Shown here one piece after another: positions 35,361 through 61,176 of a stretch of 64,000 nt of DNA (the stretch's first letter is position 1; each line of letters begins with the position of its first letter). The stretch spans positions 64,001 to 128,000 of IMG/VR virus record IMGVR_UViG_3300035099_000047. One strand, 5' to 3'. The position numbers were made by a program, and so were the translations under genes. Below the pieces are notes generated by a model. It ran no database searches. It was not told the DNA's origin and saw nothing but the letters and a program-made list of their open reading frames with translations. The DNA is from a virus.

Positions 35361-35827
35361 TTCAACACTTCCTTCACCATTTTGCCCAAATCCAGCTTCA
35401 CACTAGGCCAATGACTGCGAAATTTCAACCACAAAGGTCTCCAAATTGGTACCGGAGGCAGTTTCAACTCAGCAGAGCCATACTCACGAATCATATGGAG
35501 TTCAGTCCAACTTCTACCACTGGGCTGGTGCACTCCATCTTTGATACTGATCTCAAGGCTCCAACCATTCGCCGTTTGCGTGATAGCAGGTACTACGCAG
35601 CCCAGGTACTGTTCAGGCGATAACAGGTAGGGAGGCTGGGGCAATTGCTGACCATTTTCATCGTACTGAGGCTCTGGCCTCCACTTATCCTTAACGGCTA
35701 GCCGCAACCACAACATCAACTGAGCTTGTATGTTTTCCAGCTCAGTTTTCAATGCCCGATCCACCCGCTGTTGGTAGAACTTGGGATCAAGGTTGAAATG
35801 ACCTATTTGCTTGAACTTGACGGGCAT
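35357..35827 (-). CDS. Putative neck/tail completion protein
   Basis: EYGS..LPPVP.WRP resembles HK97-gp10-like C-terminal motif. Confidence 0.55.
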   Translation of the reverse strand: MPVKFKQIGHFNLDPKFYQQRVDRALKTELENIQAQLMLWLRLAVKDKWRPEPQYDENGQQLPQPPYLLSPEQYLGCVVPAITQTANGWSLEISIKDGVHQPSGRSWTELHMIREYGSAELKLPPVPIWRPLWLKFRSHWPSVKLDLGKMVKEVLK

Positions 35828-36870
35828 TACAATTCTTCCCAGTCCCCTACAACGTCCTCATCATAGTAGTGCAAAACCACTGTATCCCACATACGGCTTA
35901 TGTAAGGGTGCCGCCTGATAAACTCAGCTACTTGCGGATTGTGATGCCACTTTGTGGTTCTCACCGCATCCGTCACGATAATAACTGCGTCAATTCGATC
36001 GAATATCAATGCAACAGGTACCGCATCAGCCAATCCCATCCCTTCTTTCACATCATAATGAAGAGCTTCCGTCGAATCCCATGCATAACAATGATTAGAA
36101 TCCAACCATGCTCTTACTTCTCCAAAACTCTTGATCCCTTCCAATTCTTCAAAAGTCGGATCTATGTAGAGATTCACTCTGTTGCCAGAATAACTGAGCA
36201 CTTTGATCCTGAATCGCTCTTCGCTCAGGTGCTCAACAGCCCGTTCAAATCTGTTAGCTCTACTTTCCCAGGGACGGCCATGCTCCCAACTGCCAGTTGT
36301 GAGAAATGGATCGCCTAATGGTTTTCCCCATTCCTTCCTTTTCGCAGAACGACCATAATGATACCCTGATTCAGGCTCTCCAGCTGTTTCAGGCCGTTCC
36401 GGTTTCGTGTCCTTTTTCAACCGGTGTTTTTTTCCAATGGCCTTGTACGGGTCAAAATGCTTCAGAATCTCCAAATCCCTAACTGGCATATCCATAAACG
36501 TTCTCAATTCCCCAGACGCTGGGTGGCCCAAGGCTGCTAGTTTTCCCCCTCTTTCGTAGACTATCATAGGGCCTTGATTCAAATACAGTTGGAACATACG
36601 GGCCTGTTGAGGGTTTGGGCGGCGCTTACCAGAGAAAGTTGTAGTTTCTAAGTAACCCAACGCGCGGGCCACAGGTTCCAAATCCTTCCAATTATTTATA
36701 AACCGGTAAGTCATCCCCGGAATCGGAGTTTGACCAATATGAGCGGCAATTGGGGGCAACCGAATTCCCCCTACCATAGAGGCCCCTGCACCCATCATCC
36801 CCAAAAACTTTCGACGGGTTATGCCATCCTCAATCAGCTGATATACTAGCTGTTCAAATGTACTCATCAT
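35827..36870 (-). CDS. Putative capsid-internal protein (CTS-like N-terminus, twin-arginine motif)
   Basis: MMSTFEQLVYQLIE-DGITRRKFLG; second internal RFERAVEHLSE. Confidence 0.7.
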   Translation of the reverse strand: MMSTFEQLVYQLIEDGITRRKFLGMMGAGASMVGGIRLPPIAAHIGQTPIPGMTYRFINNWKDLEPVARALGYLETTTFSGKRRPNPQQARMFQLYLNQGPMIVYERGGKLAALGHPASGELRTFMDMPVRDLEILKHFDPYKAIGKKHRLKKDTKPERPETAGEPESGYHYGRSAKRKEWGKPLGDPFLTTGSWEHGRPWESRANRFERAVEHLSEERFRIKVLSYSGNRVNLYIDPTFEELEGIKSFGEVRAWLDSNHCYAWDSTEALHYDVKEGMGLADAVPVALIFDRIDAVIIVTDAVRTTKWHHNPQVAEFIRRHPYISRMWDTVVLHYYDEDVVGDWEEL

Positions 36871-37073
36871 TTGGCCAACCTGTGCTTTTTGCTCACATGA
36901 CCACAAAACGTGCAGACCTTGCCTTCAGGTCCACCAGGCCCGGTTTGATAGTCTGGAAAGTACCCAACCCTACCACATTTACGACAACGCCGTTTTTGTG
37001 GCTTGGTAGGCACAGAGTCAGCAGGTAGCTTGCCAGCCAACAAGTTTTCAGCCATTTGTTCAAAAGGGTCCAT
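36867..37073 (-). CDS. Zn-ribbon protein with CTS-like N-terminus
   Basis: MDPFEQMAENLL; CRKC..CTFC. Confidence 0.65.
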   Translation of the reverse strand: MDPFEQMAENLLAGKLPADSVPTKPQKRRCRKCGRVGYFPDYQTGPGGPEGKVCTFCGHVSKKHRLAK

Positions 37074-37908
37074 ACCTTCTCCTCTTTCGGAATACGGCAG
37101 TGATTCTTTTGTAAAAGTCGTTTGCTATTTCCGCGTGGATTTTCTCTACTCTACGGTGGAGTAGCTCGATATCCCGAGATTGCTCAAAACCCGGGTATGA
37201 CCTCCGAAAGTACCATCTATCAGCCGCTGCTTTATGAGCCTCACTAGCCGCATCATTCAACCTTCGGCTCCTAATTCTGTTCTTCAACCCCTTCAAGCTG
37301 AAACATCTAAAAGTGGCATTGTATGCACGTTCGCTCCATTCAATTGCTAAAACTACATAAGGCCAATCATCCTCAAGGGTTTTAGCCAAGTCCGGCGATT
37401 TCTGCTGAATTGATAAAATCTGGGGACGCCAATCGGATCCAACAGCCTTCGCCAATTCCATTGCTTGATGAGCCAAGTGTTCAGCTTGAGCCAACTTAAA
37501 GGTTAACTCAGTTTGGCTCAAAGATTCAACCAGGTCTTCAAACCGCAATTGACGCTGCCGCAATCGGGGAGTTGGTTCACCCTCCGGCAAACCACTCAAT
37601 ATCAATGTCAACTTGTACCGGCCTTGCCCATCTGGTTCACTCCGACTATGGTTGTTCAAAAAGAACGGAGCATTGGTGTGGCGAATAGCATCACGCAGAT
37701 TTCGGATGAAGGTTTTGACAACCATTTCAGGCCACACGTGAAGTCTAGGTATGGCCGTGAACTGGTAAACCCGTTGACCCCGCTGATCTTGGACGCTGGT
37801 CAAAGTCATGCGCTCAAACCAGTCGCGACTAGATCGGTCAACTAACCGGACAAATTCATCCATTACATCTGATACCAATAATGCTTGGGCTTCAGCGGAA
37901 AACGCCAC
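37060..37908 (-). CDS. Hypothetical protein
   Basis: Long ORF; internal RFEDLVESL. Confidence 0.6.
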   Translation of the reverse strand: MAFSAEAQALLVSDVMDEFVRLVDRSSRDWFERMTLTSVQDQRGQRVYQFTAIPRLHVWPEMVVKTFIRNLRDAIRHTNAPFFLNNHSRSEPDGQGRYKLTLILSGLPEGEPTPRLRQRQLRFEDLVESLSQTELTFKLAQAEHLAHQAMELAKAVGSDWRPQILSIQQKSPDLAKTLEDDWPYVVLAIEWSERAYNATFRCFSLKGLKNRIRSRRLNDAASEAHKAAADRWYFRRSYPGFEQSRDIELLHRRVEKIHAEIANDFYKRITAVFRKRRRYGPF

Positions 37909-38231
37909 ACCCAGAACCCTCTACCTATGTATTGGAAATAGCCTCCAACTTCTCTCCTTAGTCTGTTAATAACCAATTCTTGTTCATCAATGTTACCTTT
38001 ATCTTTCAATTCCATACGCAATTCATTTGCTTCTACATCGACCAACAAACTCATTATCTTCGCACGATGTTCCTCCACTATTTGACTGGCCCTGTCCAAG
38101 CTGTTTTCCAAATCAACCAACAACCATTCCATCATCTTGGTTCTAAAATCCTCATAGAACCGCCGCAGATGTGGATTCATTGTTTCCCCACCTTCGATCA
38201 AGTTATTAGTGACTTTTTCAAAGGGACCCAT
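37863..38231 (-). CDS. Hypothetical protein with CTS-like N-terminus
   Basis: MGPFEKVTNNLIE; paralog of the next gene (LRxFYxxxRxxxMEW). Confidence 0.7.
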   Translation of the reverse strand: MGPFEKVTNNLIEGGETMNPHLRRFYEDFRTKMMEWLLVDLENSLDRASQIVEEHRAKIMSLLVDVEANELRMELKDKGNIDEQELVINRLRREVGGYFQYIGRGFWVWRFPLKPKHYWYQM

Positions 38232-38241
38232 AAAATTACAG

Positions 38242-38616
38242 TTAAATCACTTTTGGGAACTCAATAGCAAAAAGCCATTCTATCCACTCCCCTTCCTCCT
38301 CATCAAACAGTACTCCCTCCGTAGCACTCTGTAGTTCGGCTATTAGATCTTCAGGAGATTCACCAGGGAGTATCCTAATTTTCCAACCTACCAAACCTTC
38401 TAAATCTACTTCCCCTTCTTCACACTTTTCCACGAAAGCAACCCGTGCACCATACTTGTTTAGTACCCGGTCCATTCTTTCTATAACATTGGGCACATCC
38501 GCCAATATCCATTCCATCACCCGGGCTCTATAACCAAGGTAAAATTGTCGCAGTTTGGGGTCCCGCAACTCTTCTGCCTCAACCAGCCGGTTTATGGTCT
38601 TTTCAAATCCATTCAT
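38242..38616 (-). CDS. Hypothetical protein with CTS-like N-terminus
   Basis: MNGFEKTINRLVE. Confidence 0.7.
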   Translation of the reverse strand: MNGFEKTINRLVEAEELRDPKLRQFYLGYRARVMEWILADVPNVIERMDRVLNKYGARVAFVEKCEEGEVDLEGLVGWKIRILPGESPEDLIAELQSATEGVLFDEEEGEWIEWLFAIEFPKVI

Positions 38617-38624
38617 GTATCACT

Positions 38625-39640: not shown

Positions 39641-39684
39641 TAACGAACCCCACTTGTCAACATCATTCCCAAATCAGTGCTGAG

Positions 39685-40186: not shown

Positions 40187-40187
40187 T

Positions 40188-40349
40188 TCATTTGCCCCTA
40201 TGCTTAAAATACTGCACCTGTCTTTCCCGCCTCTCAGCCCCAGCCCGGGTATCGTAGGTGCCCAAGTTCTTGCCCTTTTTGCTGAGCAGACGCCATCTGC
40301 CGTTGGACAAATGGACTATACGTTCCACCAGTTGTTCAAAGCTGTTCAT
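40188..40349 (-). CDS. Small basic protein (53 aa) with CTS-like N-terminus
   Basis: Read manually: MNSFEQLVERIVHLSNGRWRLLSKKGKNLGTYDTRAGAERRERQVQYFKHRGK. Confidence 0.75.
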   Translation of the reverse strand: MNSFEQLVERIVHLSNGRWRLLSKKGKNLGTYDTRAGAERRERQVQYFKHRGK

Positions 40350-40357
40350 GATAATGC

Positions 40358-41311: not shown

Positions 41312-41632
41312 TCACCTTGCTCCCAGAAAACGCAGTCCGGCCTCCCGCTCCAAATATCCTAGGGACGTCAGTGCTGCTTGTACTTGTTGAACAGCAGACG
41401 AAAAATACTGATCTCCTTTGCCCTTTTGGAAATGAGCCAAATTCAAATGGGCATTGTACAAATACTTGTAAGCACTGGCAATCCTCTTGGCTACATTGTC
41501 GGGAACTGCAGACTGGACTGCAGCACCAGAACTCGGCCTCCGTCCAGTGGACTGGGGTGGAGGTGGAGGGACCTGACCAGCTTCTCCTAACAAGCGATCA
41601 ACTGCCTCTAAAAAACTATCCATTTGATTCAC
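41312..41632 (-). CDS. Hypothetical protein with CTS-like N-terminus
   Basis: MDSFLEAVDRLLGE. Confidence 0.7.
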   Translation of the reverse strand: MNQMDSFLEAVDRLLGEAGQVPPPPPQSTGRRPSSGAAVQSAVPDNVAKRIASAYKYLYNAHLNLAHFQKGKGDQYFSSAVQQVQAALTSLGYLEREAGLRFLGAR

Positions 41633-42080: not shown

Positions 42081-42470
42081 TCAAGCATTCTCTCTATTCA
42101 AAACAACTTCCTCAACTAGGAGGGCTAACTCTTCTGGCGAAAGTTGATTTCTGAACCAATACACTCCGACTACCACCTCAAGTGTTGAGGAATGATATGA
42201 TTTGGGCCAATGATACGCATTTGGGTGCCGAATGCGAGTTTTACCACTTGGAGTTGTGTAATACCAAGATTCTCCGAACAACTGAGGCGGATCATCGTTA
42301 AACAAAAACCTCACGGGGCAAGTGTTATGAGCTCTCACCGCTTTACGAGCTAAACGTCTTGCTTTCAAAAAGGCTCTGGCTCTTCGGCCTTCTTCTGCTG
42401 GAAAAAATGGCAAACCAGGTCCACCCTGTTCTACCAAATACTCAACAGCACTTTTAAACAAGCGACTCAT
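42081..42470 (-). CDS. Hypothetical protein with CTS-like N-terminus
   Basis: MSRLFKSAVEYLVE. Confidence 0.65.
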   Translation of the reverse strand: MSRLFKSAVEYLVEQGGPGLPFFPAEEGRRARAFLKARRLARKAVRAHNTCPVRFLFNDDPPQLFGESWYYTTPSGKTRIRHPNAYHWPKSYHSSTLEVVVGVYWFRNQLSPEELALLVEEVVLNRENA

Positions 42471-42844
42471 TCAAAAGACTCCCACTCATCAGCCCAATCT
42501 TCTGGTTCTATCATTTGACGTATGTGATGCAAGGCGGCGTCTGCCTCTACTTCATTATCAAATATCAAGTTGATATATCCAGGTGGATCGTGTTCTTCTT
42601 GAAACACAAAGCCCAAATCCACTAGGTATGCAATGGCTTCTCTGGCTCTGTAGCTATCCCGAAAGCCAAACTCAACCCTCTCCCAACGGTACTCCATGGG
42701 TTCGGATTCCTCGGGTTCAGGCGGTTTTGGTTCTGTGGCTCGATAGGGTTGAGTCCCATAATGGAAACCATTGCCTCCCAGGGGGAACCCGTGGTGAGGT
42801 AGGTCCTCCACCAAACGGTGGACCTGGTACTCGAATGGGCCCAT
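42467..42844 (-). CDS. Acidic protein with CTS-like N-terminus
   Basis: MGPFEYQVHRLVE. Confidence 0.7.
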   Translation of the reverse strand: MGPFEYQVHRLVEDLPHHGFPLGGNGFHYGTQPYRATEPKPPEPEESEPMEYRWERVEFGFRDSYRAREAIAYLVDLGFVFQEEHDPPGYINLIFDNEVEADAALHHIRQMIEPEDWADEWESFE

Positions 42845-45125: not shown

Positions 45126-45126
45126 A

Positions 45127-46407
45127 TCAATCCAGTCTTTTCTTTGCCACATAAGTCTGATAACCCTCCCACAAACCTGGATCCGTTCTCAACAGCTTTT
45201 CGGCCTTTGGCCACCTTCCACCAATCACGTGGCTAGCATATAGATAGCTAAAATCGACCGTAGTAAGTATGGCCGGTTCCCCCAACCGGAACCGCTTGTT
45301 TCCCAAGGGACCCCTAGCATAACGGTAGGCCGCTTCCGGATCTTTGGCCATAGCAGGTTCCCCCATAGGAAACGGCCCATGAAGCGTCTCCGATGCATAC
45401 CCCAAGGCTATCTTAGCGTTCTTGGACATGGCTGGTTCACCAGCTGGGAATGGGCCAACGATCTCGGAGTAATCAAGAGAACTCTTACCGTTCCTGGCAA
45501 TTTCGGGCTCCATCTCAGGCCAACCCTCGGATCCTATGAATTTACGTATGTATTCTATTAAGTGCTCACTTTTAGCAATGGCCGGTTCCCCCAGTGGAAA
45601 TCGTCTGCCTAGCACTTCATGAGCATACCTATAGGCAGCATCACCATCCTTGGCAATGGCCTCTTCACCTTCAGGCCATTCCCCTCCCACTATTCGCTTA
45701 GCATAACCAAATGCCTGATCACCACTTGGGTTAGGTGGAGGGGTCAGCAAACGATTCAACAAAGGCCCAGGCTCCATAGGCTGGTCCTGTACGTCCATCA
45801 CTTGACTGTAATCAGGCGTGTATTGCATGAAAGGAACTCCGTCCTTCAACACAACGTAGATGGCTCCAAAATCCTCCAAATAGCTGCGAGCCCAACTAGA
45901 ATTAGCTCCACGAGTACACCACCTAGTGCCCTCCCCTAAAATCCCCAAGCTCCTTGGATCAGTAACACGCAAGGTGATATAAGGGCCGTCAACCTTATTC
46001 ACTTCAACCCCTTCTAATCCAGATATCTTGCTTGCCACCTCCGCAGGCACCCGCAGCACCTCTGGCCTTTCTTGTTGCACAGCCCGTTGCAAATCACCGA
46101 AAGTAGGGTAACGGTGAATATCACGATTCAACTGGCTAGAAGGCTTGCGTTTTAGTTCAGTGAAATGTTGCAAATACTCTTTGACTTTTTCCGCGTCTTC
46201 AGGCAGAATGACTTGATGAGTTACCCATTGCCTCAAAATCCAACTGTCGTATTGTTTATCAGGTGTTGGATCTGCATCGTCAACCAACCGAGTAATGGTA
46301 CCCACCGGCAAATCCAATACCCTGTGCGCTTTCTCCAACTGACTAGACTGTATGCCTTCTTGGAGCATTTGCCGAACCAAACGCGGGTATGGGATTCTAT
46401 AGGTCAT
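45127..46407 (-). CDS. Putative internal protein: GTxWCT domain plus ~23-aa helical repeats
   Basis: DPTPDKQYDSWI...GEGTRWCT...; repeats YA..(V/L)..(W/F)P.GEPA(I/M)AK. Confidence 0.75.
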   Translation of the reverse strand: MTYRIPYPRLVRQMLQEGIQSSQLEKAHRVLDLPVGTITRLVDDADPTPDKQYDSWILRQWVTHQVILPEDAEKVKEYLQHFTELKRKPSSQLNRDIHRYPTFGDLQRAVQQERPEVLRVPAEVASKISGLEGVEVNKVDGPYITLRVTDPRSLGILGEGTRWCTRGANSSWARSYLEDFGAIYVVLKDGVPFMQYTPDYSQVMDVQDQPMEPGPLLNRLLTPPPNPSGDQAFGYAKRIVGGEWPEGEEAIAKDGDAAYRYAHEVLGRRFPLGEPAIAKSEHLIEYIRKFIGSEGWPEMEPEIARNGKSSLDYSEIVGPFPAGEPAMSKNAKIALGYASETLHGPFPMGEPAMAKDPEAAYRYARGPLGNKRFRLGEPAILTTVDFSYLYASHVIGGRWPKAEKLLRTDPGLWEGYQTYVAKKRLD

Positions 46408-46579
46408 GTTCGTTTCTCGCCGAGGCCCCATCTCTTGAAAAGTAAAGGGGAACGATTTCTTCTTCATTTTGAAGCATTTTTGCGGGAACCCCACCATAAG
46501 GGACCCTTTTTACCCACTCAGTCTCAAATGGGCTAGCAAGACTGAATCCGGAGGAATTCACCATCACGCTCATTTCTGA

Positions 46580-46933
46580 TCAATGTCCAGCGATGTTTTT
46601 CTTTTGGGCTCGTTCATATCGCCTCAGGACCTTCCTCCCTTTTTCAGTGGTTTGGTAGACACTGTTTCCTGGGGGACCGAGTTTAATAAGCAATCCTTGA
46701 TCTGTCACTGGTGTTCTCCCCCCACTCACAATATAACCAGGCCAAATACCCAAAGCGTAAAGGTCTGTGTTCACATCCGTGAGTCTCGTGGAGGCTCCAA
46801 CTGCTCTCCTAGCATCAACCAACTCTTTATAAATGCACCCCTTCAAAGCTGCTCTCAACATAGCAGCTTGACTGCTGGGTATTGTCCGCTTTGCCTCAAC
46901 CAGTTGTTCAACCATACGCCGGAATCTTACCAT
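46580..46933 (-). CDS. Winged-helix protein with CTS-like N-terminus
   Basis: MVRFRRMVEQLVE...MLRAALKGC...YQTTEKGRKVLRRY. Confidence 0.7.
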   Translation of the reverse strand: MVRFRRMVEQLVEAKRTIPSSQAAMLRAALKGCIYKELVDARRAVGASTRLTDVNTDLYALGIWPGYIVSGGRTPVTDQGLLIKLGPPGNSVYQTTEKGRKVLRRYERAQKKNIAGH

Positions 46934-46993: not shown

Positions 46994-48091
46994 TCACACT
47001 TCCCATCCTTCGTCTGGCTCTTCTGGCTCCCACTCTTCCTCTTCAGGTTCCCATTCTTCAATATCAAACTCCTCTGGTTCCTTCACCAATTCATTCAACA
47101 ACTCAGCAGCTTCATCCGGCTCCCGTATCACAGCATATACTATGCGGTGCAGGTCCACTGGGGTCTGGGTGGCCAAGGCGTAATATAAATCAGCCAAGGA
47201 CAAATTGCGGGGCTTGACCGCCAGGAACCGCCGCCACAACTCAGGTCCAATTTGAATCAACCATGGCTCATGCCGTATATCATCAGCCTTGCTCAACACT
47301 GCCTTGGCTGTAGGCTCGTCCATATGAGCCAAACCATGATGGCTGATCAACTCCGCCACCCCCTTACTCATCTCCTGAGCCAACACAGGGAAACAAGTCG
47401 CCCGGGCATCCACTACCGGGGTCTCCTCACCCTCTTCATCTGGTTCATACCTAACACGGGTAGACCCTGTAGCCATGTCGCCTAACATTGCTAACATAGC
47501 AGGTACATCTATTAACCAATGGTAATGGTGAGCTCCCGCTGTAAGTTTGTTATACAAGGGTAGCAACCGACGGTCAATTCGATTGATCTCCTGGTCCACC
47601 ACGTGATGCATGGTCATCATGGCATGAACGGCTGAACCGTGAGTCAAGGCGTTCATGGTCAAGCGCTTGTTGACCTCATCAGTCACCTCCAATCTCTCAT
47701 CAGGCAATTCTTCCTCTTCTTCAAATTCACTACCAATTCCAACTTCTCCGGTCAACCTGCCTTCCAACATTTCTTCCGGCACACCCCATATTTGCATTGT
47801 AATGCGTTTAGCTAGATCAACCAGCTCTTGAGCATGGGCTCTCTCAATGCGTTGCACCTGCTGGTACAAGCTCATCAGCTCTCTCATATCCAATCCAGAT
47901 TGTTGCACCCGCTGGCTGGTATATTCCCAACCGCCGCGGGACAACTCATGGCCAAAAGTTCTCAGGATGGGATGTTGGCTGAACTGGTGACCACCTTGCC
48001 GCAACCCTCGCCAAAAGCGGACAGTCTCAGGATGGGCCTCATCCTCATAAGCTTCATACAATTGGTCAACCAGATTTTCAAAGGTACCCAT
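46994..48091 (-). CDS. Hypothetical protein with CTS-like N-terminus
   Basis: MGTFENLVDQLYE; 365 aa. Confidence 0.8.
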   Translation of the reverse strand: MGTFENLVDQLYEAYEDEAHPETVRFWRGLRQGGHQFSQHPILRTFGHELSRGGWEYTSQRVQQSGLDMRELMSLYQQVQRIERAHAQELVDLAKRITMQIWGVPEEMLEGRLTGEVGIGSEFEEEEELPDERLEVTDEVNKRLTMNALTHGSAVHAMMTMHHVVDQEINRIDRRLLPLYNKLTAGAHHYHWLIDVPAMLAMLGDMATGSTRVRYEPDEEGEETPVVDARATCFPVLAQEMSKGVAELISHHGLAHMDEPTAKAVLSKADDIRHEPWLIQIGPELWRRFLAVKPRNLSLADLYYALATQTPVDLHRIVYAVIREPDEAAELLNELVKEPEEFDIEEWEPEEEEWEPEEPDEGWEV

Positions 48092-48415
48092 ATTGCCTCA
48101 GGACCTCCTCCCCTTTTTCCGTAGTTTGATAAACCTCATTATCAGGACTACCGATCACCAGCAAGGAACCAGAAAGGTCTGGAGGCTCTCTACCAGCCCA
48201 AGGTAAATACGTAGTGTACCCTCTCAACAATTCCCTGAACGCTTGGCTATCTCTAAAGGTGTCCTGTGTTCCCCCATCCTTTTGTATGTTTCTTGCATTT
48301 CCGCGGCACTGCAACCGCCCAGAGCGGCCTGCAATAAGCGCATTTGAAACGGAATCCATTCATCTTGCGGTTCATCTTCACAAAGTCGTTCAACGGCTTT
48401 TTCAAAGATACCCAT
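48078..48415 (-). pseudogene. Winged-helix paralog frameshifted at a G5 run (48271-48275)
   Basis: MGIFEKAVERLCE...LLQAALGGC in one frame, ...YQTTEKGEEVLRQY in another; one extra G joins them. Confidence 0.6.
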
Positions 48416-48716
48416 ATTGCTTCAGAATTTCCATCCCTTTTTCTGTGGTTTGATAAATATGTCTCTTACCCTTCACGCCTCCAAATCTAGTCATCCATCC
48501 TTTGCCAGCAGGGTGCCAGTCCCCTAACAAATACAAATAGTTGTTCACACTCCACAAGCTCTTCCATTCTCCAGCAGCCTTATCCAAGTCATTCCAAAAG
48601 CAGCCTTTTTCAGCCGTTTTCAACAAAGCTAATGCAAGTGGAGACGGTTTTCTAACCCTTTGGGCTTCCACCAATTGGTGAACCACTTGCTCAAACCCAC
48701 CTGCGTTCACGCTCAT
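48402..48716 (-). CDS. Winged-helix protein with CTS-like N-terminus
   Basis: GGFEQVVHQLVE...LLKTAEKGC...YQTTEKGMEILKQY. Confidence 0.7.
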   Translation of the reverse strand: MSVNAGGFEQVVHQLVEAQRVRKPSPLALALLKTAEKGCFWNDLDKAAGEWKSLWSVNNYLYLLGDWHPAGKGWMTRFGGVKGKRHIYQTTEKGMEILKQYGYL

Positions 48717-49000
48717 ACCTTTTCAACGCTTCCAAACCTCTTTTGGTCGTTTGGAAAATCCGCCCTTCATGGTGACCAAAACGCACTATCCAACCAAACA
48801 TCTCAAAGATTCCGATCCACTCCCCCACGCGGGCTTGCTTAGGGATAAGGCGCAAATCCTGGCTAAGGCAACCCCCAACGCAAGCCCTTAACACTTTGAT
48901 TCCATTTTCATCCAAATCCCGACGGAAAAATTCTTCTTCATCTGCATAAAAACGCATTTCACAAAGTCGGCCAACTTGATGATTCACTGAATTCTTCCAT
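48691..49000 (-). CDS. Winged-helix protein, 5' end out of frame
   Basis: ATG 49000 (MEEF) is one base out of frame with NHQVGRLCE...FQTTKRGLEALKRY. Confidence 0.55.
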
Positions 49001-49161: not shown

Positions 49162-49350
49162 TCAAGGCTTCCAAGCCTTGGGAGTTGGGACCACCTTCGG
49201 TTTAGGAGGGTTGAACGGCCGGGGCTTCCCCGGCTTAGTAGGAGGCTGATAAGGCCTGCGCACCGGGACTCTCTTGGGGGGAGCTTTTGGAGGGGCGATT
49301 ATAGGCTCTTCACTTAACAATTGCAACACAGCGCGTTCAAAACTGTTCAT
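49162..49350 (-). CDS. Pro/Lys-rich small protein with CTS-like N-terminus
   Basis: MNSFERAVLQLLSE. Confidence 0.65.
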   Translation of the reverse strand: MNSFERAVLQLLSEEPIIAPPKAPPKRVPVRRPYQPPTKPGKPRPFNPPKPKVVPTPKAWKP

Positions 49351-49660
49351 AGCGGTCCACCTGCATATCATAGAGTTTCATGGGGTCATCGGTCAAAAAC
49401 AAATCATGCAACCTGGTAGTAGCCAACTCGTGGAATGCCTGTTGTTTTTCTTCCTCTGAAGTGTCATCTATCCACTCGGCTTCATCATGATTCCAATAGC
49501 ACTTATCCGGGAACATTTCAGCTAACTTTTCCATCAAATCGTCTGGGTCCACAAATACCTTACCAGTGAGGGTAGCCCAAGCATAATAATACCGGTTGCG
49601 GCGTCCCCGACTGTGATAATAGCTAAGAACATCATCCGCAGCTTCCTTGAACCCACCCAT
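49337..49660 (-). CDS. Hypothetical protein with CTS-like N-terminus
   Basis: MGGFKEAADDVL. Confidence 0.6.
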   Translation of the reverse strand: MGGFKEAADDVLSYYHSRGRRNRYYYAWATLTGKVFVDPDDLMEKLAEMFPDKCYWNHDEAEWIDDTSEEEKQQAFHELATTRLHDLFLTDDPMKLYDMQVDRYEQF

Positions 49661-49687: not shown

Positions 49688-49984
49688 CTACTTGTTCCTT
49701 CCCGCCCTTTCCCAAAATCGGCTTCCATCGTATCTTCTCAAGGCTTCCATACCTCTTTTGGTCGTTTGAAACACTCTACCTCCAACTGAACCCAAGACCG
49801 CAATCCAACCATCTTCTATAAGCCGATACATAATACTGAACAGCATCCCCCCAACAGCCTGGTCCAACTCGTCAGGTGTACATCCTTTCATTGCTACTCT
49901 CAAATAATCAGCTTCATCCGCAGTAGGAATCCTACCTACGTTGTCCTCACAAATCCGCTCAACTGCTTTTTCAAATCTGTTCAT
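49688..49984 (-). CDS. Winged-helix protein with CTS-like N-terminus
   Basis: MNRFEKAVERICE...YLRVAMKGC...FQTTKRGMEALRRY. Confidence 0.7.
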   Translation of the reverse strand: MNRFEKAVERICEDNVGRIPTADEADYLRVAMKGCTPDELDQAVGGMLFSIMYRLIEDGWIAVLGSVGGRVFQTTKRGMEALRRYDGSRFWERAGRNK

Positions 49985-52922: not shown

Positions 52923-54485
52923 TTACTTGACTTTTCTAACCAGGCTCTCCATCAAATTGGTCGGCTTGGCAACACCCGCACGGGCTGGTCTCGCTGAGGA
53001 GCCTCTGGCTTCAGTCAGCGGGGGCAGGTCGGAGGGGTAGTCCTTGCGACCACTCATAATCGGCTGGATGAAACCTTCAACCAGCTGTTTGACTTGCTTA
53101 ACCGTATGGCACTCACTCAATTGTTTCTCAATGGGCTTGAGAGCAGGGGCGTGGTTCATTAACGACTCCACGTATTGGGCCACCTGTTCACCTCGGTATC
53201 GCTTTACAGTGGCTTCTAACAGCTTCAAGCTGGCCTCAGCCCGCTTAAAAGCTTCAGCCAATTGACCCCTGAGCTGTTTAATAGTGCGCTCGGCCATTCG
53301 CTTGTTGGCCCTGCTCTTGGTCACCAGTGTCTCACCCAACTGAATGGCCACGTGATACCTTTCCTGCAGTGATCGGTCGCGGCGGTAGGCGCGCTCCATC
53401 ACCCGAGCAGCTGCATCATCAGTTGGGGTGATGTCTTCCTTTTTCTCTTTTTCCTTTTTGGCTTTTTCCTCAGCCGCAATGCATTCCTCAGCTTCACGCA
53501 TCCGGCGAATAGCTCGTGTGATTTCTTCTCCACGATTGGTCAGCTGACCCCGCAAGTGGGCCACATCCGAACTAAACTCACTTTCGGTAATGGAGCCCAA
53601 CCCGGCCAACGTGTCATTGACCTTTTGAGCGTGCTCCAATAGCCCTTCCAATGTGATGTCCTTACCTCCCAGGTATTGACCTGAACTCTCCACAACCACT
53701 CGGGCCCGCGCAGTGCGGTCCGAAGACTCTTTCAATTGAACCGGTGTAGTCATTGTCTTGTTCTCCAAAATGGGTACCAGAAATATCCTCGATCCGTTGT
53801 TGGTTTGTAGGCTTTCCACAGGGCGAGTTGTTGCTCCCATTACGCTTGGGATGTAAACGTGATCAAACGTGTCTAACACATAGTCGCTAGCCTCTACGAT
53901 TTCGTCTCCGTTCTCGTTACGAGTGCTACCAGAACCTCGGCTACTCACCGCAACAGGCACTCCAACGTCAAAATACTCCCTCAAAATTTGACCAGCTGGA
54001 GTATTGAAAATCAGATGGGTCACATAAATCTTACCATCCTTGCGTTGAACATCTTCTACCAAGTGGCTTAGCCCCAAGTTGTTATGTCCGTGCAACTTGG
54101 TGTTGCCACTTTCAGGGTGCTCCAACTCCCCCAACACACTACGTTCCCGCAACCTGCGACGAAAGGTTCCATCCTCAGACAACACCCGATCCCACAAGGT
54201 TGAGGGATAAATGCGGCCATTCTGATTCTTGAGATTTTCCACTTGGCCTGGACCCGTCACCCGCAGCCGTTTGTTATGGCTCAATAGCTCTTGCAGGATC
54301 TGATCCTTGCTACCCCGCCAGTGTTCAATCAGCTGTTCATTTTTCTCCTGCTCCAACAGCCGATTAAATTCCTCCCAACGGGGCATCAACACACTTTCCT
54401 TCAAACCCTCCGAAGTGACCCACTCCTTTTGCCACTGGTCTGGGGGTACTGTCATTGTTTCTATTAGCAATTTTCGTTCAGCCAT
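52923..54485 (-). CDS. Prohead protease (gp21-like) fused to a coiled-coil scaffold domain
   Basis: NQNGRIYP...LGELEHP...SH...TPAG...VSSRGSGS...FDHVYIPS. Confidence 0.93.
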   Translation of the reverse strand: MAERKLLIETMTVPPDQWQKEWVTSEGLKESVLMPRWEEFNRLLEQEKNEQLIEHWRGSKDQILQELLSHNKRLRVTGPGQVENLKNQNGRIYPSTLWDRVLSEDGTFRRRLRERSVLGELEHPESGNTKLHGHNNLGLSHLVEDVQRKDGKIYVTHLIFNTPAGQILREYFDVGVPVAVSSRGSGSTRNENGDEIVEASDYVLDTFDHVYIPSVMGATTRPVESLQTNNGSRIFLVPILENKTMTTPVQLKESSDRTARARVVVESSGQYLGGKDITLEGLLEHAQKVNDTLAGLGSITESEFSSDVAHLRGQLTNRGEEITRAIRRMREAEECIAAEEKAKKEKEKKEDITPTDDAAARVMERAYRRDRSLQERYHVAIQLGETLVTKSRANKRMAERTIKQLRGQLAEAFKRAEASLKLLEATVKRYRGEQVAQYVESLMNHAPALKPIEKQLSECHTVKQVKQLVEGFIQPIMSGRKDYPSDLPPLTEARGSSARPARAGVAKPTNLMESLVRKVK

Positions 54486-54775
54486 TTGTTATCCTCCGAA
54501 CGAAGGCCCCAACTTGAAGGTCCAGTTGGTTTGTCTACTGTGTAAGTGTGTTTCATCCATATGTGATACTTTTCCAACAGTTTCATCAACAATTCAAACT
54601 TGCCACGAGGTATAAACACCTCTCTGGCTGGCATTTCCGGGTGCACTCCCGTATTACGAATCAGGACACCAGATTTATAATCATGACTGGGCAAGTACAA
54701 TTCCAATCCACCCTCGCGGGCGATCAAATGATGCTCGTTTAACAATTGCTCAGCGGCTTCTTCAAAACAGTTCAT
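54464..54775 (-). CDS. Hypothetical protein with CTS-like N-terminus
   Basis: MNCFEEAAEQLLNE. Confidence 0.65.
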   Translation of the reverse strand: MNCFEEAAEQLLNEHHLIAREGGLELYLPSHDYKSGVLIRNTGVHPEMPAREVFIPRGKFELLMKLLEKYHIWMKHTYTVDKPTGPSSWGLRSEDNKWLNENC

Positions 54776-55809: not shown

Positions 55810-56268
55810 TTACCAACCACTCAAGGACCACAGGAACTGTCGAACTTCCTCAGATTTCAACGCCCTATCATGGAGGTCAACCACTATTTTCAAATCCGGT
55901 GTAGCCTGAAGGTAGGGTTTACCATTTTTCAACACCACGTATATCACACCATAATGTTTAAGGTACGTATTAGCGTATTTCTCATCTCTGGTATCCCAAT
56001 AAGTTCGCCTGCCTATCGTCGCCAAGCTCTCTGGATCAGTTACGTGTAAAAACACGTAGGGGCCCTTTTGCCTTTCCACCTTTACCCCGGGCAGAGTGGT
56101 CAAATCCTCTCTAGGAGCACCACGCCTTGGCAATCTTCTCGGCATGTTTTCTGGCTCATCAAGGGCTGGGCTGCTTTCAAATTCATCTTCAAACTCCGCG
56201 GGCTCAGGGGGTTCAAAAAACGGACCTGTTTCTAACAAACGGTCAACAGCTTGTTCAAAAATGTCCAT
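55810..56268 (-). CDS. CTS-like protein with a domain paralogous to 45127..46407
   Basis: MDIFEQAVDRLLE; GPY..L.VTDP.SL...IYVVLK.G.P..Q.TPD. Confidence 0.75.
   Translation of the reverse strand: MDIFEQAVDRLLETGPFFEPPEPAEFEDEFESSPALDEPENMPRRLPRRGAPREDLTTLPGVKVERQKGPYVFLHVTDPESLATIGRRTYWDTRDEKYANTYLKHYGVIYVVLKNGKPYLQATPDLKIVVDLHDRALKSEEVRQFLWSLSGW
56150..56208. repeat. 59-bp dispersed repeat (second copy 59462-59520)
   Basis: 4 mismatches in 59 nt; both encode PEPAEFEDEFESxPALDEPE. Confidence 0.9.
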
Positions 56269-56717: not shown

Positions 56718-56989
56718 AATTCTCCTTCAATTAAAACAGAAACCAACTTGTTTAACATCACCTGATGTTCATACAGGTTAGCTGACTGAGCCACGAGCCC
56801 AGCCAACCGGTGAACTGGCTTGTTACTGTCAGGTTTGATCTGACCCGCTTCATACACACCAATAGCGTTCAACAGTATTCGACCTTCTGGACCCAATTGT
56901 TTGGCATAGCACTTGGCTTCTTGGAGTCCTTTGACACGAACTATCTCCAAAAACTCAGCAATCGTCGGCAATGACTTGAGTTCAACCAT
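56714..56989 (-). CDS. Hypothetical protein
   Basis: Coupled ORF. Confidence 0.55.
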   Translation of the reverse strand: MVELKSLPTIAEFLEIVRVKGLQEAKCYAKQLGPEGRILLNAIGVYEAGQIKPDSNKPVHRLAGLVAQSANLYEHQVMLNKLVSVLIEGEL

Positions 56990-56992
56990 TTG

Positions 56993-57397: not shown

Positions 57398-57400
57398 TGA

Positions 57401-57793
57401 TTAGTCCTCTTCATCATCAAAGTAACCAGGTCGGTCCTTAGCCCAAGCCTCAAATGCTTCCCAAGCAGATTGCATTTCTGCTCTGAATTGTTCTTCTAAC
57501 ATAGCCACCATCTCCTCTGGTTTCAACGAATCACTATATTCTGGATTGGTCCAATGTTCAAAGGAACTCTTCAGGCGCTCAAATACAATAAGAGACAGGC
57601 TCTCCTTTTCCATTGGACCACGAGGGTTCAAGCTGTTGTCAGGTCTCCCAAGGTGAACCCTCTTGTATTGAGGAGGCGGATGACCAAACTGCTTATAAAA
57701 ATTATGAAAATGCTTGTAACGAGGATCATCAGGATCCATAAACTTTGCTTCTGCTACTATCTTATTTACAGCCTGTTCAAACCGGTCCATCAC
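57401..57793 (-). CDS. Hypothetical protein with CTS-like N-terminus
   Basis: MDRFEQAVNKIVAE. Confidence 0.7.
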   Translation of the reverse strand: MMDRFEQAVNKIVAEAKFMDPDDPRYKHFHNFYKQFGHPPPQYKRVHLGRPDNSLNPRGPMEKESLSLIVFERLKSSFEHWTNPEYSDSLKPEEMVAMLEEQFRAEMQSAWEAFEAWAKDRPGYFDDEED

Positions 57794-59208: not shown

Positions 59209-59214
59209 AGCACC

Positions 59215-59649
59215 TTAATCCTTCCAAGGTTCTTCTTCATACAGATCAACATTAAGCAATTTCATCAATCTGGAGATCTTACCATAGTCTTTTGGTGAGT
59301 AGTAAAAAGTGTGCATACCATGAGAATACTCATATTTGTAACCCACATGATTGATCTGAAATGCCGTAGCTATCATTTGGGCATTCTTGCTACTTCCCAC
59401 TCCGACATAACCCGGATCCAAAGCAAACCTCTTAGGCAACTTGTCTGGAGTTGGTTCAGTCTCTGGCTCGTCAAGAGCTGGGTTGCTTTCAAATTCATCT
59501 TCAAACTCCGCGGGTTCAGGAGGTAACGACCTCAAAGGTTGGTCTGGATCACGCCCAGGATAGCGCTTTCCTCCACTACCCCAACCCTCCATCTGTTCAT
59601 CTATTGATTCATCCAATAGATGATGAAGAACTTTTTCAAACGGTCCCAC
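59215..59649 (-). CDS. Hypothetical protein with CTS-like N-terminus
   Basis: (M)GPFEKVLHHLLDE. Confidence 0.7.
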   Translation of the reverse strand: MGPFEKVLHHLLDESIDEQMEGWGSGGKRYPGRDPDQPLRSLPPEPAEFEDEFESNPALDEPETEPTPDKLPKRFALDPGYVGVGSSKNAQMIATAFQINHVGYKYEYSHGMHTFYYSPKDYGKISRLMKLLNVDLYEEEPWKD

Positions 59650-59651
59650 TG

Positions 59652-59882
59652 TTACCACCCTTGAGATTCAGCTTCCAACCGATCTAACCACTCCTCAGCT
59701 TCGGCTTTGCTTGCAAAAGTAGCATAGCAAAAACCACTTTCTTCCCCAAACACTCCCCAAGCTGCTGTATCAAAATCCCATTCCACGTACATTTCCTCAC
59801 GGTATTTGGGATGGTCTGGATACTTGGGATCCATTGTATATTCAACCAACAGATGCTTTACCTGTTGCTCAAATGGTCCCAT
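59652..59882 (-). CDS. Hypothetical protein with CTS-like N-terminus
   Basis: MGPFEQQVKHLLVE. Confidence 0.7.
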   Translation of the reverse strand: MGPFEQQVKHLLVEYTMDPKYPDHPKYREEMYVEWDFDTAAWGVFGEESGFCYATFASKAEAEEWLDRLEAESQGW

Positions 59883-59889
59883 ATCATCA

Positions 59890-60174
59890 CTAATCTGGAA
59901 AAGCCTTTTTCAACAAATCACGCTGGTGCTCTTTGGGCAACTCTCGGAAGAATTCCAAAGACTGATTTATGTAAGGGTTGGCCGATCGATATCTCCCTTT
60001 CATTACGATTTCCAAAACAAATGCTCTTTCATTCAAGGCCGAAGTTAAAGCACTAGAAGTACGGTCATAATAGGCCCAAACTCTTTTCAAAGACTCAACA
60101 ACCCATTCTTCCCAACCCATGATAGGATTGTTCCAAATGCTGAGATTTTCGACAGCTTCTTGAAACAAACCCAC
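59890..60174 (-). CDS. Hypothetical protein with CTS-like N-terminus
   Basis: (M)GLFQEAVENL; paralog of 60856 (RELPxxHQxxLLxxAxP). Confidence 0.65.
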   Translation of the reverse strand: MGLFQEAVENLSIWNNPIMGWEEWVVESLKRVWAYYDRTSSALTSALNERAFVLEIVMKGRYRSANPYINQSLEFFRELPKEHQRDLLKKAFPD

Positions 60175-60176
60175 CT

Positions 60177-60863
60177 TCACCACTCCCAAGCTTTGCGTTC
60201 TTCCTCCCTATCCAATATCTCTTCGCCCCACGCACGCCATATCTCATTGCCAACCAAGCTAGGCACCCGTCGACCTTCTACAGCAGCATAGTTGAACACC
60301 AACCCCTCCGTGTGAGGATTCACAGCATAGTAAATCTCAATACGGGCATAATCTCCATCCACCACCTGGTCCAAAGTGCCTGCTACATCCGCTGGTATCT
60401 GAACATCCGCTTGCATACCCCGCTCTTCCCACCACACTCCATCTTCATCCCGGTATACATCTATCAAAAACTGATTTTCCAACTTGCCCAGATACCCACA
60501 CACCAGCTGCTTAGGGTCTTGACCCTCCAACAACTCATCTACCAAAGCTTTTTCTCTTTGACCACCATCCACCAAACCATTCAAACGCTCCACCAAGTGG
60601 CGATACCTATCCACCAAGCTATCGGCCACACTTGCGCCGTTGAAGAGCTTGGAGTATATTTGGTCTTGGCACTCGTGAATCCGCTTCAGCGTGCTGCAAA
60701 ACAAATTGTTGCGAACGTAATCGTTGTTTGGCCTAATGAGTTGCTTTTCCACTGCAGCCTTCACTACAGCCTCATATACCTCCAAGTCCCGAGACAATTC
60801 AGGACGTGGACCCAACTGGGCCAATGCGTTGCGCCAAACAGGGAGTTGAACCGGTTCAGTCAT
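60177..60863 (-). CDS. Hypothetical protein
   Basis: Long ORF in operon. Confidence 0.65.
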   Translation of the reverse strand: MTEPVQLPVWRNALAQLGPRPELSRDLEVYEAVVKAAVEKQLIRPNNDYVRNNLFCSTLKRIHECQDQIYSKLFNGASVADSLVDRYRHLVERLNGLVDGGQREKALVDELLEGQDPKQLVCGYLGKLENQFLIDVYRDEDGVWWEERGMQADVQIPADVAGTLDQVVDGDYARIEIYYAVNPHTEGLVFNYAAVEGRRVPSLVGNEIWRAWGEEILDREEERKAWEW

Positions 60864-61176
60864 AATCAAACCACTCCGAAGGGATTGCCCTGTTCAATAA
60901 CGAAACTTGGTGTCCTGGAGGCAACTCCCGGTAAAGTTGCAAAGCTTCCAAATCGGACGAAATTTTATCCATTTCCATCTTGGTAACCACATCATGAACC
61001 ACTTTCCTAACTTTTTCAACTTTAGAAAGTTTATCTGATACGTGGTCCCAAGCATCTCCAACCATTATATCGTCAATGAGGCCCCAAACTTCTTGCAAAG
61101 CTCCAATCACTCGATCTTCCCAAAAAAATTGTTGGGATTCCGCAAGCTGGTTTACACCTTGTTCAAAACTATTCAT
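60856..61176 (-). CDS. Hypothetical protein with CTS-like N-terminus
   Basis: MNSFEQGVNQLAE. Confidence 0.7.
   Translation of the reverse strand: MNSFEQGVNQLAESQQFFWEDRVIGALQEVWGLIDDIMVGDAWDHVSDKLSKVEKVRKVVHDVVTKMEMDKISSDLEALQLYRELPPGHQVSLLNRAIPSEWFDYD

Follow-up and report, generated by a model that had tools for sequence, protein, structure and literature searches.

An uncultured sediment phage with a 172-kb genome and a T4-type head was found to carry the same helical tag of 13-14 residues on about 30 mostly unrelated small proteins. It was concluded that the shared peptide is probably a capsid-targeting propeptide like that of T4, in greatly expanded use, and judging from the sequence data the tag would most likely load its proteins into the capsid. 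Positions are given for the window, which is a stretch of 64,000 nucleotides of this genome.

The consensus of the tag was M-x-x-F-E-x-x-V-x-x-L-(L)-x-E, an amphipathic helix with a hydrophobic stripe formed by F4-V8-L11-L12 and an invariant aromatic residue at position 4. Its helical hydrophobic moment was 0.59 vs 0.29 (p = 7e-13). The linkers directly after the tag were enriched in Pro, and in the AF2 model of paralog group B the tag was a separate helix of residues 2-15. When a Sec or Tat signal peptide was considered, no hydrophobic h-region of at least 10 residues was found inside the shared peptide, which was amphipathic and acidic. The (I/L)xE ending, which the sequence-only reading had given for the T4 capsid-targeting sequence (CTS), was recovered as [LIVM]-x-E in 24 of the 29 N-terminal tags. 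The Glu slid between residues 13 and 14 with the L-x-E register kept, and was found once at residue 17, in a single copy with a 4-residue extension. The terminal Glu was missing from 5 N-terminal tags, so that these proteins, if packaged, would not be cut at that place.

All 17 peptides quoted in the sequence-only reading were present, each at the ATG start of an ORF on the minus strand within 35827-61176, and its count of about 28 tagged genes was a fair one. In this range, 19 ORFs began M-x-x-F with the full motif and another ~8-10 were variants, besides one internal copy (~36217-36258) and two C-terminal tag-like helices (ends of 56714-56989 and 57790-59208). The variant tags had GTG starts (59649 and 60174), one extra residue (42470) or the 4-residue extension (48716), and half-tags were seen at 48987, 59208 and 46497. 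The peptide had been described as N-terminal, which was correct for most copies but not for the internal and C-terminal ones. These, together with the tag-like C-terminal helix on a conserved acidic head protein, are new points.

The tag recurred far beyond chance. On the coding strand, a 14-residue HMM gave 26 matches of at least 13 bits in the 172-kb genome. No copy was found in 1.4 Mb of related phage DNA, and the best score among the 28,340 ORFs of 104 related loci was only 6.6 bits. The exact back-translated pattern occurred only 3 times, each time singly, in all of IMG/VR. The tag was carried by 24 of the 47 head-region genes (around the protease and capsid genes) vs 2 of the 160 genes elsewhere (Fisher p = 2.6e-16), so the motif was not equally common outside the head region. 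The earlier statement that all tagged genes surround the head genes and none lies in the tail region was confirmed for the tail module (0 of 26 genes), but a few tagged genes were more distant from the head genes: some formed a second cluster ~20 kb off and others were close to the portal. The set continued past the window at the window-equivalent positions 64397, 64758, 65078, 65610 (C-terminal), 66271 (C-terminal), 86092 and 86777, and weaker copies were seen around the portal. About an eighth of the genes in this genome were tagged. The genes of the head cluster were located on one strand and tightly packed (median gap 5 nt).

Table. Tagged genes and head genes in the window.
Position	Strand	Feature	Family matches
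35827..36867	minus	tagged protein, 346 aa; N-terminal tag and second, internal tag at ~residues 220-232	
36867..37073	minus	tagged basic zinc-ribbon-like protein, 68 aa; tag without final Glu	
37060..37863	minus	uncertain member, 267 aa; weak N-terminal variant and weak internal tag-like stretch	
37863..38231	minus	tagged protein, 122 aa, paralog group A	
38242..38616	minus	tagged protein, 124 aa, paralog group A	
40188..40349	minus	tagged very basic protein (pI 11), 53 aa; tag without final Glu	
41312..41623	minus	tagged basic protein, 103 aa	
41651..41992	minus	tagged acidic protein, 113 aa	
42081..42470	minus	tagged protein, 129 aa; extra residue ahead of Phe	
42467..42844	minus	tagged acidic protein, 125 aa	
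45127..46497	minus	head-module protein of conserved family (P0123 when taken from later start); half-tag ending L-Q-E near N-terminus	
46580..46933	minus	tagged basic winged-helix-like protein, 117 aa, paralog group B	
46994..48091	minus	tagged strongly acidic protein, 365 aa	
48224..48415	minus	tagged ORF, 63 aa	
48402..48716	minus	tagged group B protein, 104 aa; 4 extra residues ahead of tag	
48691..48987	minus	group B protein, 98 aa; second half of tag only (V-x-x-L-x-E)	
49162..49350	minus	tagged Pro/Lys-rich protein, 62 aa (mature pI 11.6)	
49337..49660	minus	uncertain member, 107 aa; weak tag variant	
49688..49984	minus	tagged group B protein, 98 aa	
51401..52840	minus	gp23-type major capsid protein, 479 aa from called start	Pfam Gp23 1.8e-46; PHROG major head protein 1.8e-44
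52923..54485	minus	prohead protease fused to coiled-coil scaffold-like C-terminal half, 520 aa	Pfam Peptidase_S77 1.9e-9 and S80; PHROG head maturation protease 7.4e-29
54464..54775	minus	tagged protein, 103 aa	
55494..55766	minus	tagged protein, 90 aa; tag without final Glu	
55810..56268	minus	tagged protein, 152 aa; cargo domain from widespread uncharacterised phage family	
56714..56989	minus	91-aa protein; tag-like helix at its end (weaker, C-terminal copy)	
57401..57790	minus	tagged protein, 129 aa	
57790..59208	minus	conserved very acidic head-module protein, 472 aa, net charge ~-47; N-terminal half-tag and tag-like helix at extreme C-terminus	
59215..59649	minus	tagged protein, 144 aa, GTG start	
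59652..59882	minus	tagged acidic protein, 76 aa	
59890..60174	minus	tagged protein, 94 aa, paralog group C; GTG start, degenerate tag	
60856..61176	minus	tagged protein, 106 aa, paralog group C	

The protease and capsid genes lay in the middle of the cluster of tagged genes, and the presence of a gp21-like protease, as noted earlier, was upheld by the family matches (Table). The protease had one site at each end, L-L-I-E9 (N-terminal) and L-M-E (C-terminal). In its alignment (A3), E9 was invariant (L-L-x-E) and L7 nearly so, and catalytic-type E-H-P and S-S-R-G columns were present. Dozens of relatives also had this protease-scaffold fusion, placed upstream of their capsid gene. In the capsid protein, the conserved L-A-E28 and L-L-E67 were candidate maturation sites, the latter ~25 residues before the conserved core; among 20 homologs (alignment A1), E28 and L65 were nearly invariant and E67 invariant. 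The protease cleavage rule ([LIVM]-x-E) recurred at invariant sites in the capsid protein and the protease of the clade.

We proposed that the tag helix would dock its protein onto the core or shell of the assembling prohead. The likeliest dock would be either the surface that the acidic 472-aa protein would contact through its own tag-like terminal helix, or else the coiled-coil part of the protease-scaffold fusion. When the shell had closed, the protease would cut after the tag Glu and set the cargo free within the head, where it would stay with the DNA, and at least a part of it may enter the next host. A point against this reading is that at least 30 cargo species would share a head of this size, with a low copy number expected for each. 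The internal copies may be cleavable joints of two-cargo polyproteins, and the C-terminal copies would either dock without removal or be cut off at the Glu just upstream. It was also observed that the residues before this upstream Glu were Y, V and G, of which just one fits L/I/V-x-E; the C-terminal copies fit the classic N-terminal propeptide scheme only with extra assumptions. Every sequence-level prediction tested for a T4-type capsid-targeting sequence was borne out, and the interpretation as a whole is partly supported. The delivery of "dozens of effectors" into the host, as the sequence-only reading put it, is an inference.

The tagged genes had been called unrelated, which was mostly the case: an all-against-all BLAST of the cargo left ~20 singletons, although three small paralog groups (2, 3-6 and 4 members) were also found. 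The cargo comprised ~22 unrelated families of diverse composition, nearly all without known domains, among them the winged-helix-like family (group B). The protein at 46994..48091 gave no family match in Pfam and PHROG searches. A frameshift seems to have split one group B gene into the ORFs at 48224..48415 (front half) and 48078-48359 (back half). The protein at 45127..46497 was paralogous both to a 602-aa gene product encoded next to the portal and to the cargo domain at 55810-56268. In a relative with 64% capsid identity (G001), the same tag was found on ~10 ORFs, none of them homologous to any ORF of this phage. In more distant relatives, small unrelated proteins encoded next to the head genes had N-terminal peptides in common that differed from this tag but matched it in length and likewise ended in L-x-E, and a widespread head-module family began M-K/R-L-x-x-I/L-I/L-E. 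We inferred that the cargo is a fast-turning accessory repertoire, including small basic and winged-helix DNA-binding-like proteins.

The tag might instead be a prohead-core assembly helix. The tagged proteins would then be accessory parts of the scaffold or core, or factors for size and assembly, rather than delivered effectors, and would be cut and then expelled or degraded at maturation. In T4, gp22, gp67 and gp68 are cut and expelled or degraded in head maturation. The acidic 472-aa protein is a candidate core or scaffold protein, and in several relatives its homologs had a tag-like helix too, either at the very C-terminus or as the link to an added domain that follows, which fits the propeptide reading as well. 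Many cargo proteins were likewise very acidic, as scaffolds are, and in T4 the core proteins are lost from the head after cleavage at L/I-x-E (PMC9026906). However, so many unrelated and fast-turning families, with no cargo common to two related phages, are unlike essential assembly parts. Internal L/I-x-E sites were few in the mature cargo parts (0-3 each), whereas scaffold proteins are cut many times, and several cargo proteins were small, basic (pI 9.6-11.6) and DNA-binding-like. A role confined to core assembly was judged unlikely.

A lower probability still, and a small one, was given to a docking or recognition peptide for a non-capsid partner, either the leader of a modifying enzyme (a radical-SAM maturase) or a peptide for a hub protein of host or phage, for example a chaperone, protease adaptor or RNA polymerase. 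Radical-SAM enzymes are encoded in the genome, and a tag at either protein end would suit a generic docking helix. However, the radical-SAM gene (PF04055) was part of the baseplate module and no tagged gene lay within 27 kb of it, and radical-SAM genes were also present in two relatives without the tag (G002 and G003). The cargo proteins were unrelated, mostly Cys-poor and 48-460 residues long, which does not describe short cores; the one fixed end of the tag was the protease motif, and the tagged genes were confined to head-gene neighbourhoods. A RiPP-like leader served by a radical-SAM maturase was rejected: neither gene linkage nor co-occurrence of the maturase with the tag was seen, short Cys/Ser/Thr-rich cores were not found, and the cargo was diverse, with one family modeled as a winged-helix fold.

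The likeness of the tags as a by-product at the DNA level, whether through a conserved 5' coding segment serving recombination or controlling translation, or as what is left of a single duplicated gene family, was largely refuted and scarcely credible. The T-even ip loci are thought to shuffle through recombination, the CTS of T4 ipII and ipIII were identical in DNA when compared here, and three paralog groups do exist, but most cargo proteins had no detectable similarity to each other, and internal and C-terminal tags cannot be a translation-start element. In agreement with the earlier reading, the tag DNA of this phage was diverged and conservation was at the peptide level: all four GTN codons were used for V8 and three codons for L11, identical tag residues had the same codon in only 52% of cases, and the DNA flanking the tag on both sides was 27% identical, which is random.

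Beyond the capsid-targeting propeptide itself, it was tentatively considered, as a doubtful but real possibility, that one portable helix serves as a general address code for the head interior in this phage lineage. The same helix would close the acidic core protein, head the ~30 swappable cargo proteins and join the two-cargo polyproteins. Cargo would enter by mimicking the shell- or core-binding helix of the scaffold, and the protease would then release it. If so, about one gene in eight would encode a virion-delivered protein, DNA-binding proteins included. In the protein at 35827..36867, a Tat-like T-R-R-K-F-L motif and a hydrophobic stretch directly followed the N-terminal tag (a weak prediction, score 0.83, together with the sequence itself); the cut might expose this signal and allow re-export to the periplasm of the next host.

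The closest known system is that of T4, which is established by experiment, the present phage being known from sequence alone. The T4 gp21 protease cuts after L/I-x-E and itself has an LIE-9 site (PMC9026906), matched here by the invariant protease E9, and capsid E67 resembles Glu65 of gp23. As in T4, a short N-terminal peptide is common to otherwise unrelated proteins, a gp21-family protease and a gp23-type capsid gene are present, the cargo set varies between related phages and some of it is basic. C-terminal processing is also known for T4 Alt and gp21. The T4 CTS has 10 residues, with residues 4 and 7 for targeting and 8 and 10 for processing (PMC9026906, PMC8442874). The tag showed no sequence homology to this decapeptide (PMC8442874), having in common with it only Met1, the aromatic residue at position 4 and the final x-E, and it is 3-4 residues longer. 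Further differences are ~30 tagged genes vs 3-4 in T4, the diverged tag DNA, the internal and C-terminal tag copies, the many strongly acidic cargo proteins and the fusion of the protease to a scaffold-like domain.

In giant phages, ejection or inner-body proteins carry propeptides (phiKZ gp175, 201phi2-1, SPN3US gp245; PMC5694885, PMC7411985). A gp21-related protease cuts many of their head proteins after Glu, the propeptides are inferred to guide proteins into the prohead, and the SPN3US paralogs gp53 and gp54 have an identical 15-residue N-terminus. However, these propeptides mostly have 80-160 residues and do not amount to a single common tag, the motif cleaved is A/S/G-x-E, and the capsids are far larger. 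In phage P1, an N-terminal segment of DarB suffices to direct a protein to the capsid interior, from which it is delivered along with the DNA (PMC9024508). That segment differs in having 30 residues and belonging to one protein, with no shared family tag and no link to a gp21-type cleavage site. The cargo-loading peptide of encapsulins is a short terminal helix or peptide, common to unrelated cargo, that binds the inside of an HK97-fold shell. Like the tag it may sit at either cargo end; encapsulins are not viruses, have no protease removal and hold no DNA, and the likeness is one of analogy only.

A short peptide of the form M-x-x-F-E-x-x-V-x-x-L-(L)-x-E (the tag) was shared by the starts of mostly unrelated proteins encoded around the head genes, and its sequence suggests that it is probably a capsid-targeting peptide removed by the prohead protease. 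The 172,227-bp viral contig, bases 64001-128000 of which form the window, originated from a sediment metagenome and had a CheckV completeness of ~78%, nearly all of its genes being located on the minus strand. Near-identical fragments were present in contigs from two other sediment metagenomes, so the phage DNA was considered real, which has no bearing on expression. No RNA run was listed among the public runs carrying the sequence, and a T4-type late promoter (TATAAATA) did not recur upstream of the genes. The identity of the capsid protein to those of the nearest cultured phages was only ~34%. Many closer relatives were found in metagenomes, the closest by capsid (83% and 77% identity) on 194-kb and 56-kb contigs. 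Contig L105 (CALGKL010000295.1; 4.7 kb, capsid identity 80%) showed the local gene order of the window; its binning with a MAG designated Gloeocapsa sp. (cyanobacterium) is a very weak hint of the host.

Features of the phage contig and of related loci (window positions unless marked; L002, L007, L039, L047 and L057 are related loci)
Feature	Position	Strand	Assignment or observation
669-aa baseplate-region ORF	19509-21518	-	matched by the G001 capsid protein
Tape measure (tail module)	25187-28306		Pfam/PHROG annotation
Sheath (tail module)	31911-33470		Pfam/PHROG annotation
346-aa tagged protein	35827-36867	-	T-R-R-K-F-L directly after the tag Glu
767-aa ORF	42849-45152	-	intein (Pfam Intein_splicing, residues 155-639)
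456-aa gene	45127-46497		domain of the 152-aa cargo
93-aa ORF	48078-48359	-	overlaps the 63-aa ORF
63-aa tagged ORF	48224-48415	-	overlaps the 93-aa ORF
Major capsid protein	51401-52840	-	gp23-type; Pfam Gp23, 1.8e-46
520-aa gene, directly upstream of the capsid gene	52923-54485	-	first half T4 gp21-type prohead protease; Peptidase_S77/S80; PHROG head maturation protease, 7.4e-29
152-aa cargo	55810-56268		domain widespread in phages
Acidic 472-aa head protein	57790-59208	-	half-tag at start, tag-like helix at end
TnpB/IS605-type transposase gene	genome 152156-153340 (L113:4156-5340)	-	PHROG 506, 1e-96
602-aa gene	genome 166472-168280 (L116:10472-12280)	-	adjoins portal gene
Portal gene, 829 aa	genome 168345-170834 (L116:12345-14834)	-	PHROG 28563 (small)
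Protease and scaffold-like ORFs of L002	L002:3432-5459	+	339 and 300 aa, unfused; 73% capsid identity
Homolog of the intein host gene	L002:7722-8486		uninterrupted, 254 aa
Loci with their own shared N-terminal peptides	L047:1854-19628; L039:5022-19085; L057; L007

The second half of the 520-aa gene was a long coiled-coil, scaffold-like region, and such a protease-scaffold fusion upstream of the capsid gene was the rule in dozens of relatives. The portal gene was located at the opposite end of the contig. The host gene of the intein encoded a ~280-aa head/neck-region protein, and the intein itself carried an HNH nuclease motif together with several C2H2 zinc fingers. Since the intein region and the portal gene matched the same PHROG, the portal gene may hold an intein too. 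The match between the baseplate-region ORF and the capsid protein of G001, a 192.6-kb IMG/VR contig with 64% capsid identity, extended over 112 residues (37% identity, E 5e-12); a domain common to capsid and tail proteins seems to be indicated by this alignment.

The sequence-only reading had listed a series of shared N-terminal peptides, and each of them was found at the ATG of a minus-strand ORF. A 14-residue profile built from 22 copies gave 26 matches of at least 13 bits on the coding strand of the genome, and the best score among 28,340 six-frame ORFs from 104 related-phage loci (~1.4 Mb) was 6.6 bits. Only three single, unrelated-looking matches to the back-translated exact pattern were recorded across all of IMG/VR. 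Tagged genes made up 24 of 47 in the head region (genome 99.8-130.6 kb) versus 2 of 160 elsewhere (Fisher p = 2.6e-16), and none of the 26 genes in the tail module was tagged. The profile matches, the chance comparison and the head-region enrichment confirmed the observation of a shared peptide. The genome total reached ~30-35 once looser variants were included, namely those with a GTG start, with one residue extra or missing, or with the second half of the tag only. The tagged genes formed three groups: one surrounding the genes for the protease and the capsid protein, another ~20 kb further, within which the transposase gene was located, and a few genes beside the portal. The capsid-sheath interval contained five genes in L002 versus ~45 in this genome, hence most tagged genes were regarded as lineage-specific insertions.

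The conservation of the tag was at the peptide level. All four codons were used for Val8 and three each for Leu11 and Ala7, identical residues shared the same codon in only 52% of cases, and the DNA flanks of the copies (30 nt upstream and 42 nt downstream) were 27% identical, which equals random. A DNA-level explanation of the similarity was excluded by the codon data. Phe4, Val8, Leu11 and residue 12 were placed on one face of a helix, and the helical hydrophobic moment was 0.59 for the tag versus 0.29 for the other N-termini of the genome (p = 7e-13). Proline was enriched in the 18 residues that followed. An AlphaFold model of one cargo family, cargo being the part behind the tag, presented the tag as a separate helix (residues 2-15) before a folded domain (pLDDT 78).

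The most informative feature of the tag was its end, which read [LIVM]-x-E in 24 of the 29 N-terminal copies. The Glu was at residue 13 or 14, or at 17 in a single copy with a 4-residue N-terminal extension, and the hydrophobic residue two places before it was retained whichever position it took. The major capsid protein of T4, gp23, is cut after Glu65. An alignment of 20 homologs of the phage capsid protein contained L-A-E28 and an invariant L-L-E67, the latter ~25 residues before the conserved core and placed as the gp23 cut. Judged by its residues, the end of the tag is the cleavage rule of the T4 protease gp21, L/I-x-E with the cut after Glu (PMC9026906). The protease alignment contained an invariant Glu9 in L-L-x-E, which matched the LIE-9 site of gp21 (PMC9026906), and a conserved L-M-E near the C-terminus. 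The capsid protein and protease of the clade therefore obey the rule seen at the end of the tag.

The tagged proteins were 53-472 residues long. An all-against-all BLAST of the cargo yielded three small paralog groups (2, 3-6 and 4 members) and ~20 singletons. No significant Pfam or PHROGs family was obtained for at least 20 tagged proteins, the sole exception being DUF5662 in one protein outside the window. The charge of the cargo was mixed: seven proteins were strongly basic (pI 9.6-11.6), including a Pro/Lys-rich 48-residue mature peptide and a zinc-ribbon-like protein, and others were very acidic. For one paralog group (group B), of which a further member was located beside the portal, a winged-helix fold was predicted. 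Its nearest solved structures were PadR, MarR and Sso10a-type DNA-binding proteins, the matches being weak (best E 7.6e-3, TM ~0.5) and mutually consistent. The overlapping 63-aa and 93-aa ORFs resemble the 5' and 3' halves, respectively, of a single frameshifted group B gene.

The domain of the 152-aa cargo was also present in the 602-aa and 456-aa genes and in >100 uncharacterised phage protein clusters, many of which start with an 8-9-residue M-K/R-L-x-x-I/L-I/L-E. This widespread, unannotated family (P0122-P0222) was characterized by a conserved T-D-x-E-S-L ... G-E-G-T-K-W-C-T-R, the domain often being followed by many R-W-P-E-A-E-P repeats. The start peptide of the family was of T4 length and propeptide-like, and the 602-aa gene started with a tag-like peptide ending in L-L-G-E. 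In the 346-aa protein, a Gly/Ala/Met-rich hydrophobic stretch followed T-R-R-K-F-L (residues ~14-45 in all), and together they look like a twin-arginine (Tat) export signal; ESM Atlas neighbours were Tat-signal proteins (score 0.83, weak). It would be unusual for a protein loaded into the head to be exported afterwards to the periplasm of the next host. The AF2 model of this protein made without an alignment (pLDDT 37) was too poor for use, and ESM Atlas gave no usable match for a 365-aa protein.

Among the relatives, G001 carried the tag as M-G-P-F-E-x-x-V-x-x-L-x-E on ~10 ORFs, 15-30 kb upstream of its capsid gene. None of these proteins had a homolog in the present genome. Conversely, when the tagged proteins of this phage were compared with 80 kb of G001, a homolog was recorded only for the acidic 472-aa head protein, the capsid-protein control being positive. 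It was concluded that the tag had been kept while the cargo was fully replaced. The tag was not found in 13 further related contigs, one of them a 25%-complete fragment with 64% capsid identity and the others at <=51%. Several of the tag-less relatives possessed shared N-terminal peptides of their own on mutually unrelated small proteins adjoining the head genes: M-R/K-V/I-x-T-R-L-T-E-x-L-x-E on six proteins, M-R/K-K-x-F-L-E-W-A on five (L039), which resembles the T4 tag, M-x-x-x-R-x-N-I/L-K-x-I-L-T-E on a pair, and M-x-x-x-F-R-E-A-V-x-x-L-L-x-E on four partly paralogous proteins. The tagging habit was therefore clade-wide and the sequence lineage-specific, as is expected where a tag and a fast-changing core evolve together. 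Among its relatives, this genome stands out by the number of tagged genes.

The tag was not confined to N-termini. The 346-aa protein had a second copy at ~residue 220, two proteins just outside the window ended with a full tag, two inside it ended with a tag-like helix, and 6 of the 11 copies in G001 were situated 83-173 residues inside open frames. In three cases E-S preceded the C-terminal copy, and a second cut at that Glu is conceivable, but L/I/V three residues before the Glu was present in only one of the three. We infer that internal copies act as cleavable joints of two-cargo polyproteins and that C-terminal copies are such joints from which the second cargo is absent. No C-terminal copies of the lineage-specific tags were found in the stretches examined from more distant relatives, and the co-variation comparison of core-protein termini with tags covered the close clade only.

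The 472-aa head protein, conserved in relatives, had a net charge of ~-47 and resembled scaffold and core proteins in its acidity and poly-Glu stretches. The same kind of terminal helix was present in its homologs from G001, from the related locus L011 and among metagenome proteins (two more); the closest homolog had it internally, ahead of an added domain. From these termini we infer that this core protein may use the tag helix to bind a partner, candidates being the shell, the protease-scaffold and the core protein itself. An uncontrolled docking prediction of the first 40 residues of the tag region against the protease-scaffold gave a score of 0.00, which weighs neither for nor against such binding.

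It was proposed that cargo would enter the head by bearing a copy of the core protein's helix. The tag would bind the prohead core and be cut off by the protease, the cargo would remain in the head and be ejected with the DNA, and internal copies would serve as polyprotein joints. In T4, CTS-type tags bind the prohead core and are cut by gp21, and the cargo stays in the head and is ejected with the DNA (PMC9026906, PMC3012670, PMC8442874); IPI and IPIII counter host defences (PMC3012670; bioRxiv 10.1101/2022.04.14.488369). The large modular cargo-loading system of the sequence-only reading was thus upheld in part, namely in its sequence-level likeness to T4, while packaging, cleavage and delivery are put forward by analogy. 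A role in core assembly without delivery would fit the acidic tagged members and the tag-like helix of the core protein, but it is unlikely, as complete cargo turnover and the scarcity of internal cut sites are at odds with it. The notion that the tag is a leader for a modifying enzyme was not supported, as the radical-SAM gene belonged to the baseplate module, at least 27 kb from the nearest tagged gene, and such genes also occurred in relatives without the tag.

If capsid targeting is true, about 1/8 of the phage genes would serve a head-loading route, and packaged proteins would have a major and fast-evolving part in the conflict between environmental T4-like phages and their hosts, since relatives retained the tag and exchanged the cargo completely. 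Two CTS-carrying proteins of T4 have by now been linked to anti-defence roles. Such cargo could then also be spotted in metagenomes by a simple sequence rule, and the 13-residue tag, with its release site built in, could be of practical use in bringing foreign proteins into phage heads. To our knowledge, the binding partner of the CTS has not been established even in T4, and a clue to it is provided by the helix that ends the acidic core protein.

The CTS of T4, carried by a handful of proteins, is the textbook case of head-loaded proteins delivered with the DNA. A literature search returned no description of tag families expanded to this extent. The tag of this phage would work like the CTS, every sequence-level feature of the T4 system having been found. 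It lacks homology to the T4 decapeptide. The CTS DNA pattern matches only ipII and ipIII in T4, which are mutually identical at the DNA level. Compared with the CTS, the apparent novelty lies in a longer tag of different sequence, in ~10x as many tagged genes, in internal and C-terminal use and in the putative connection with a core-protein terminus.
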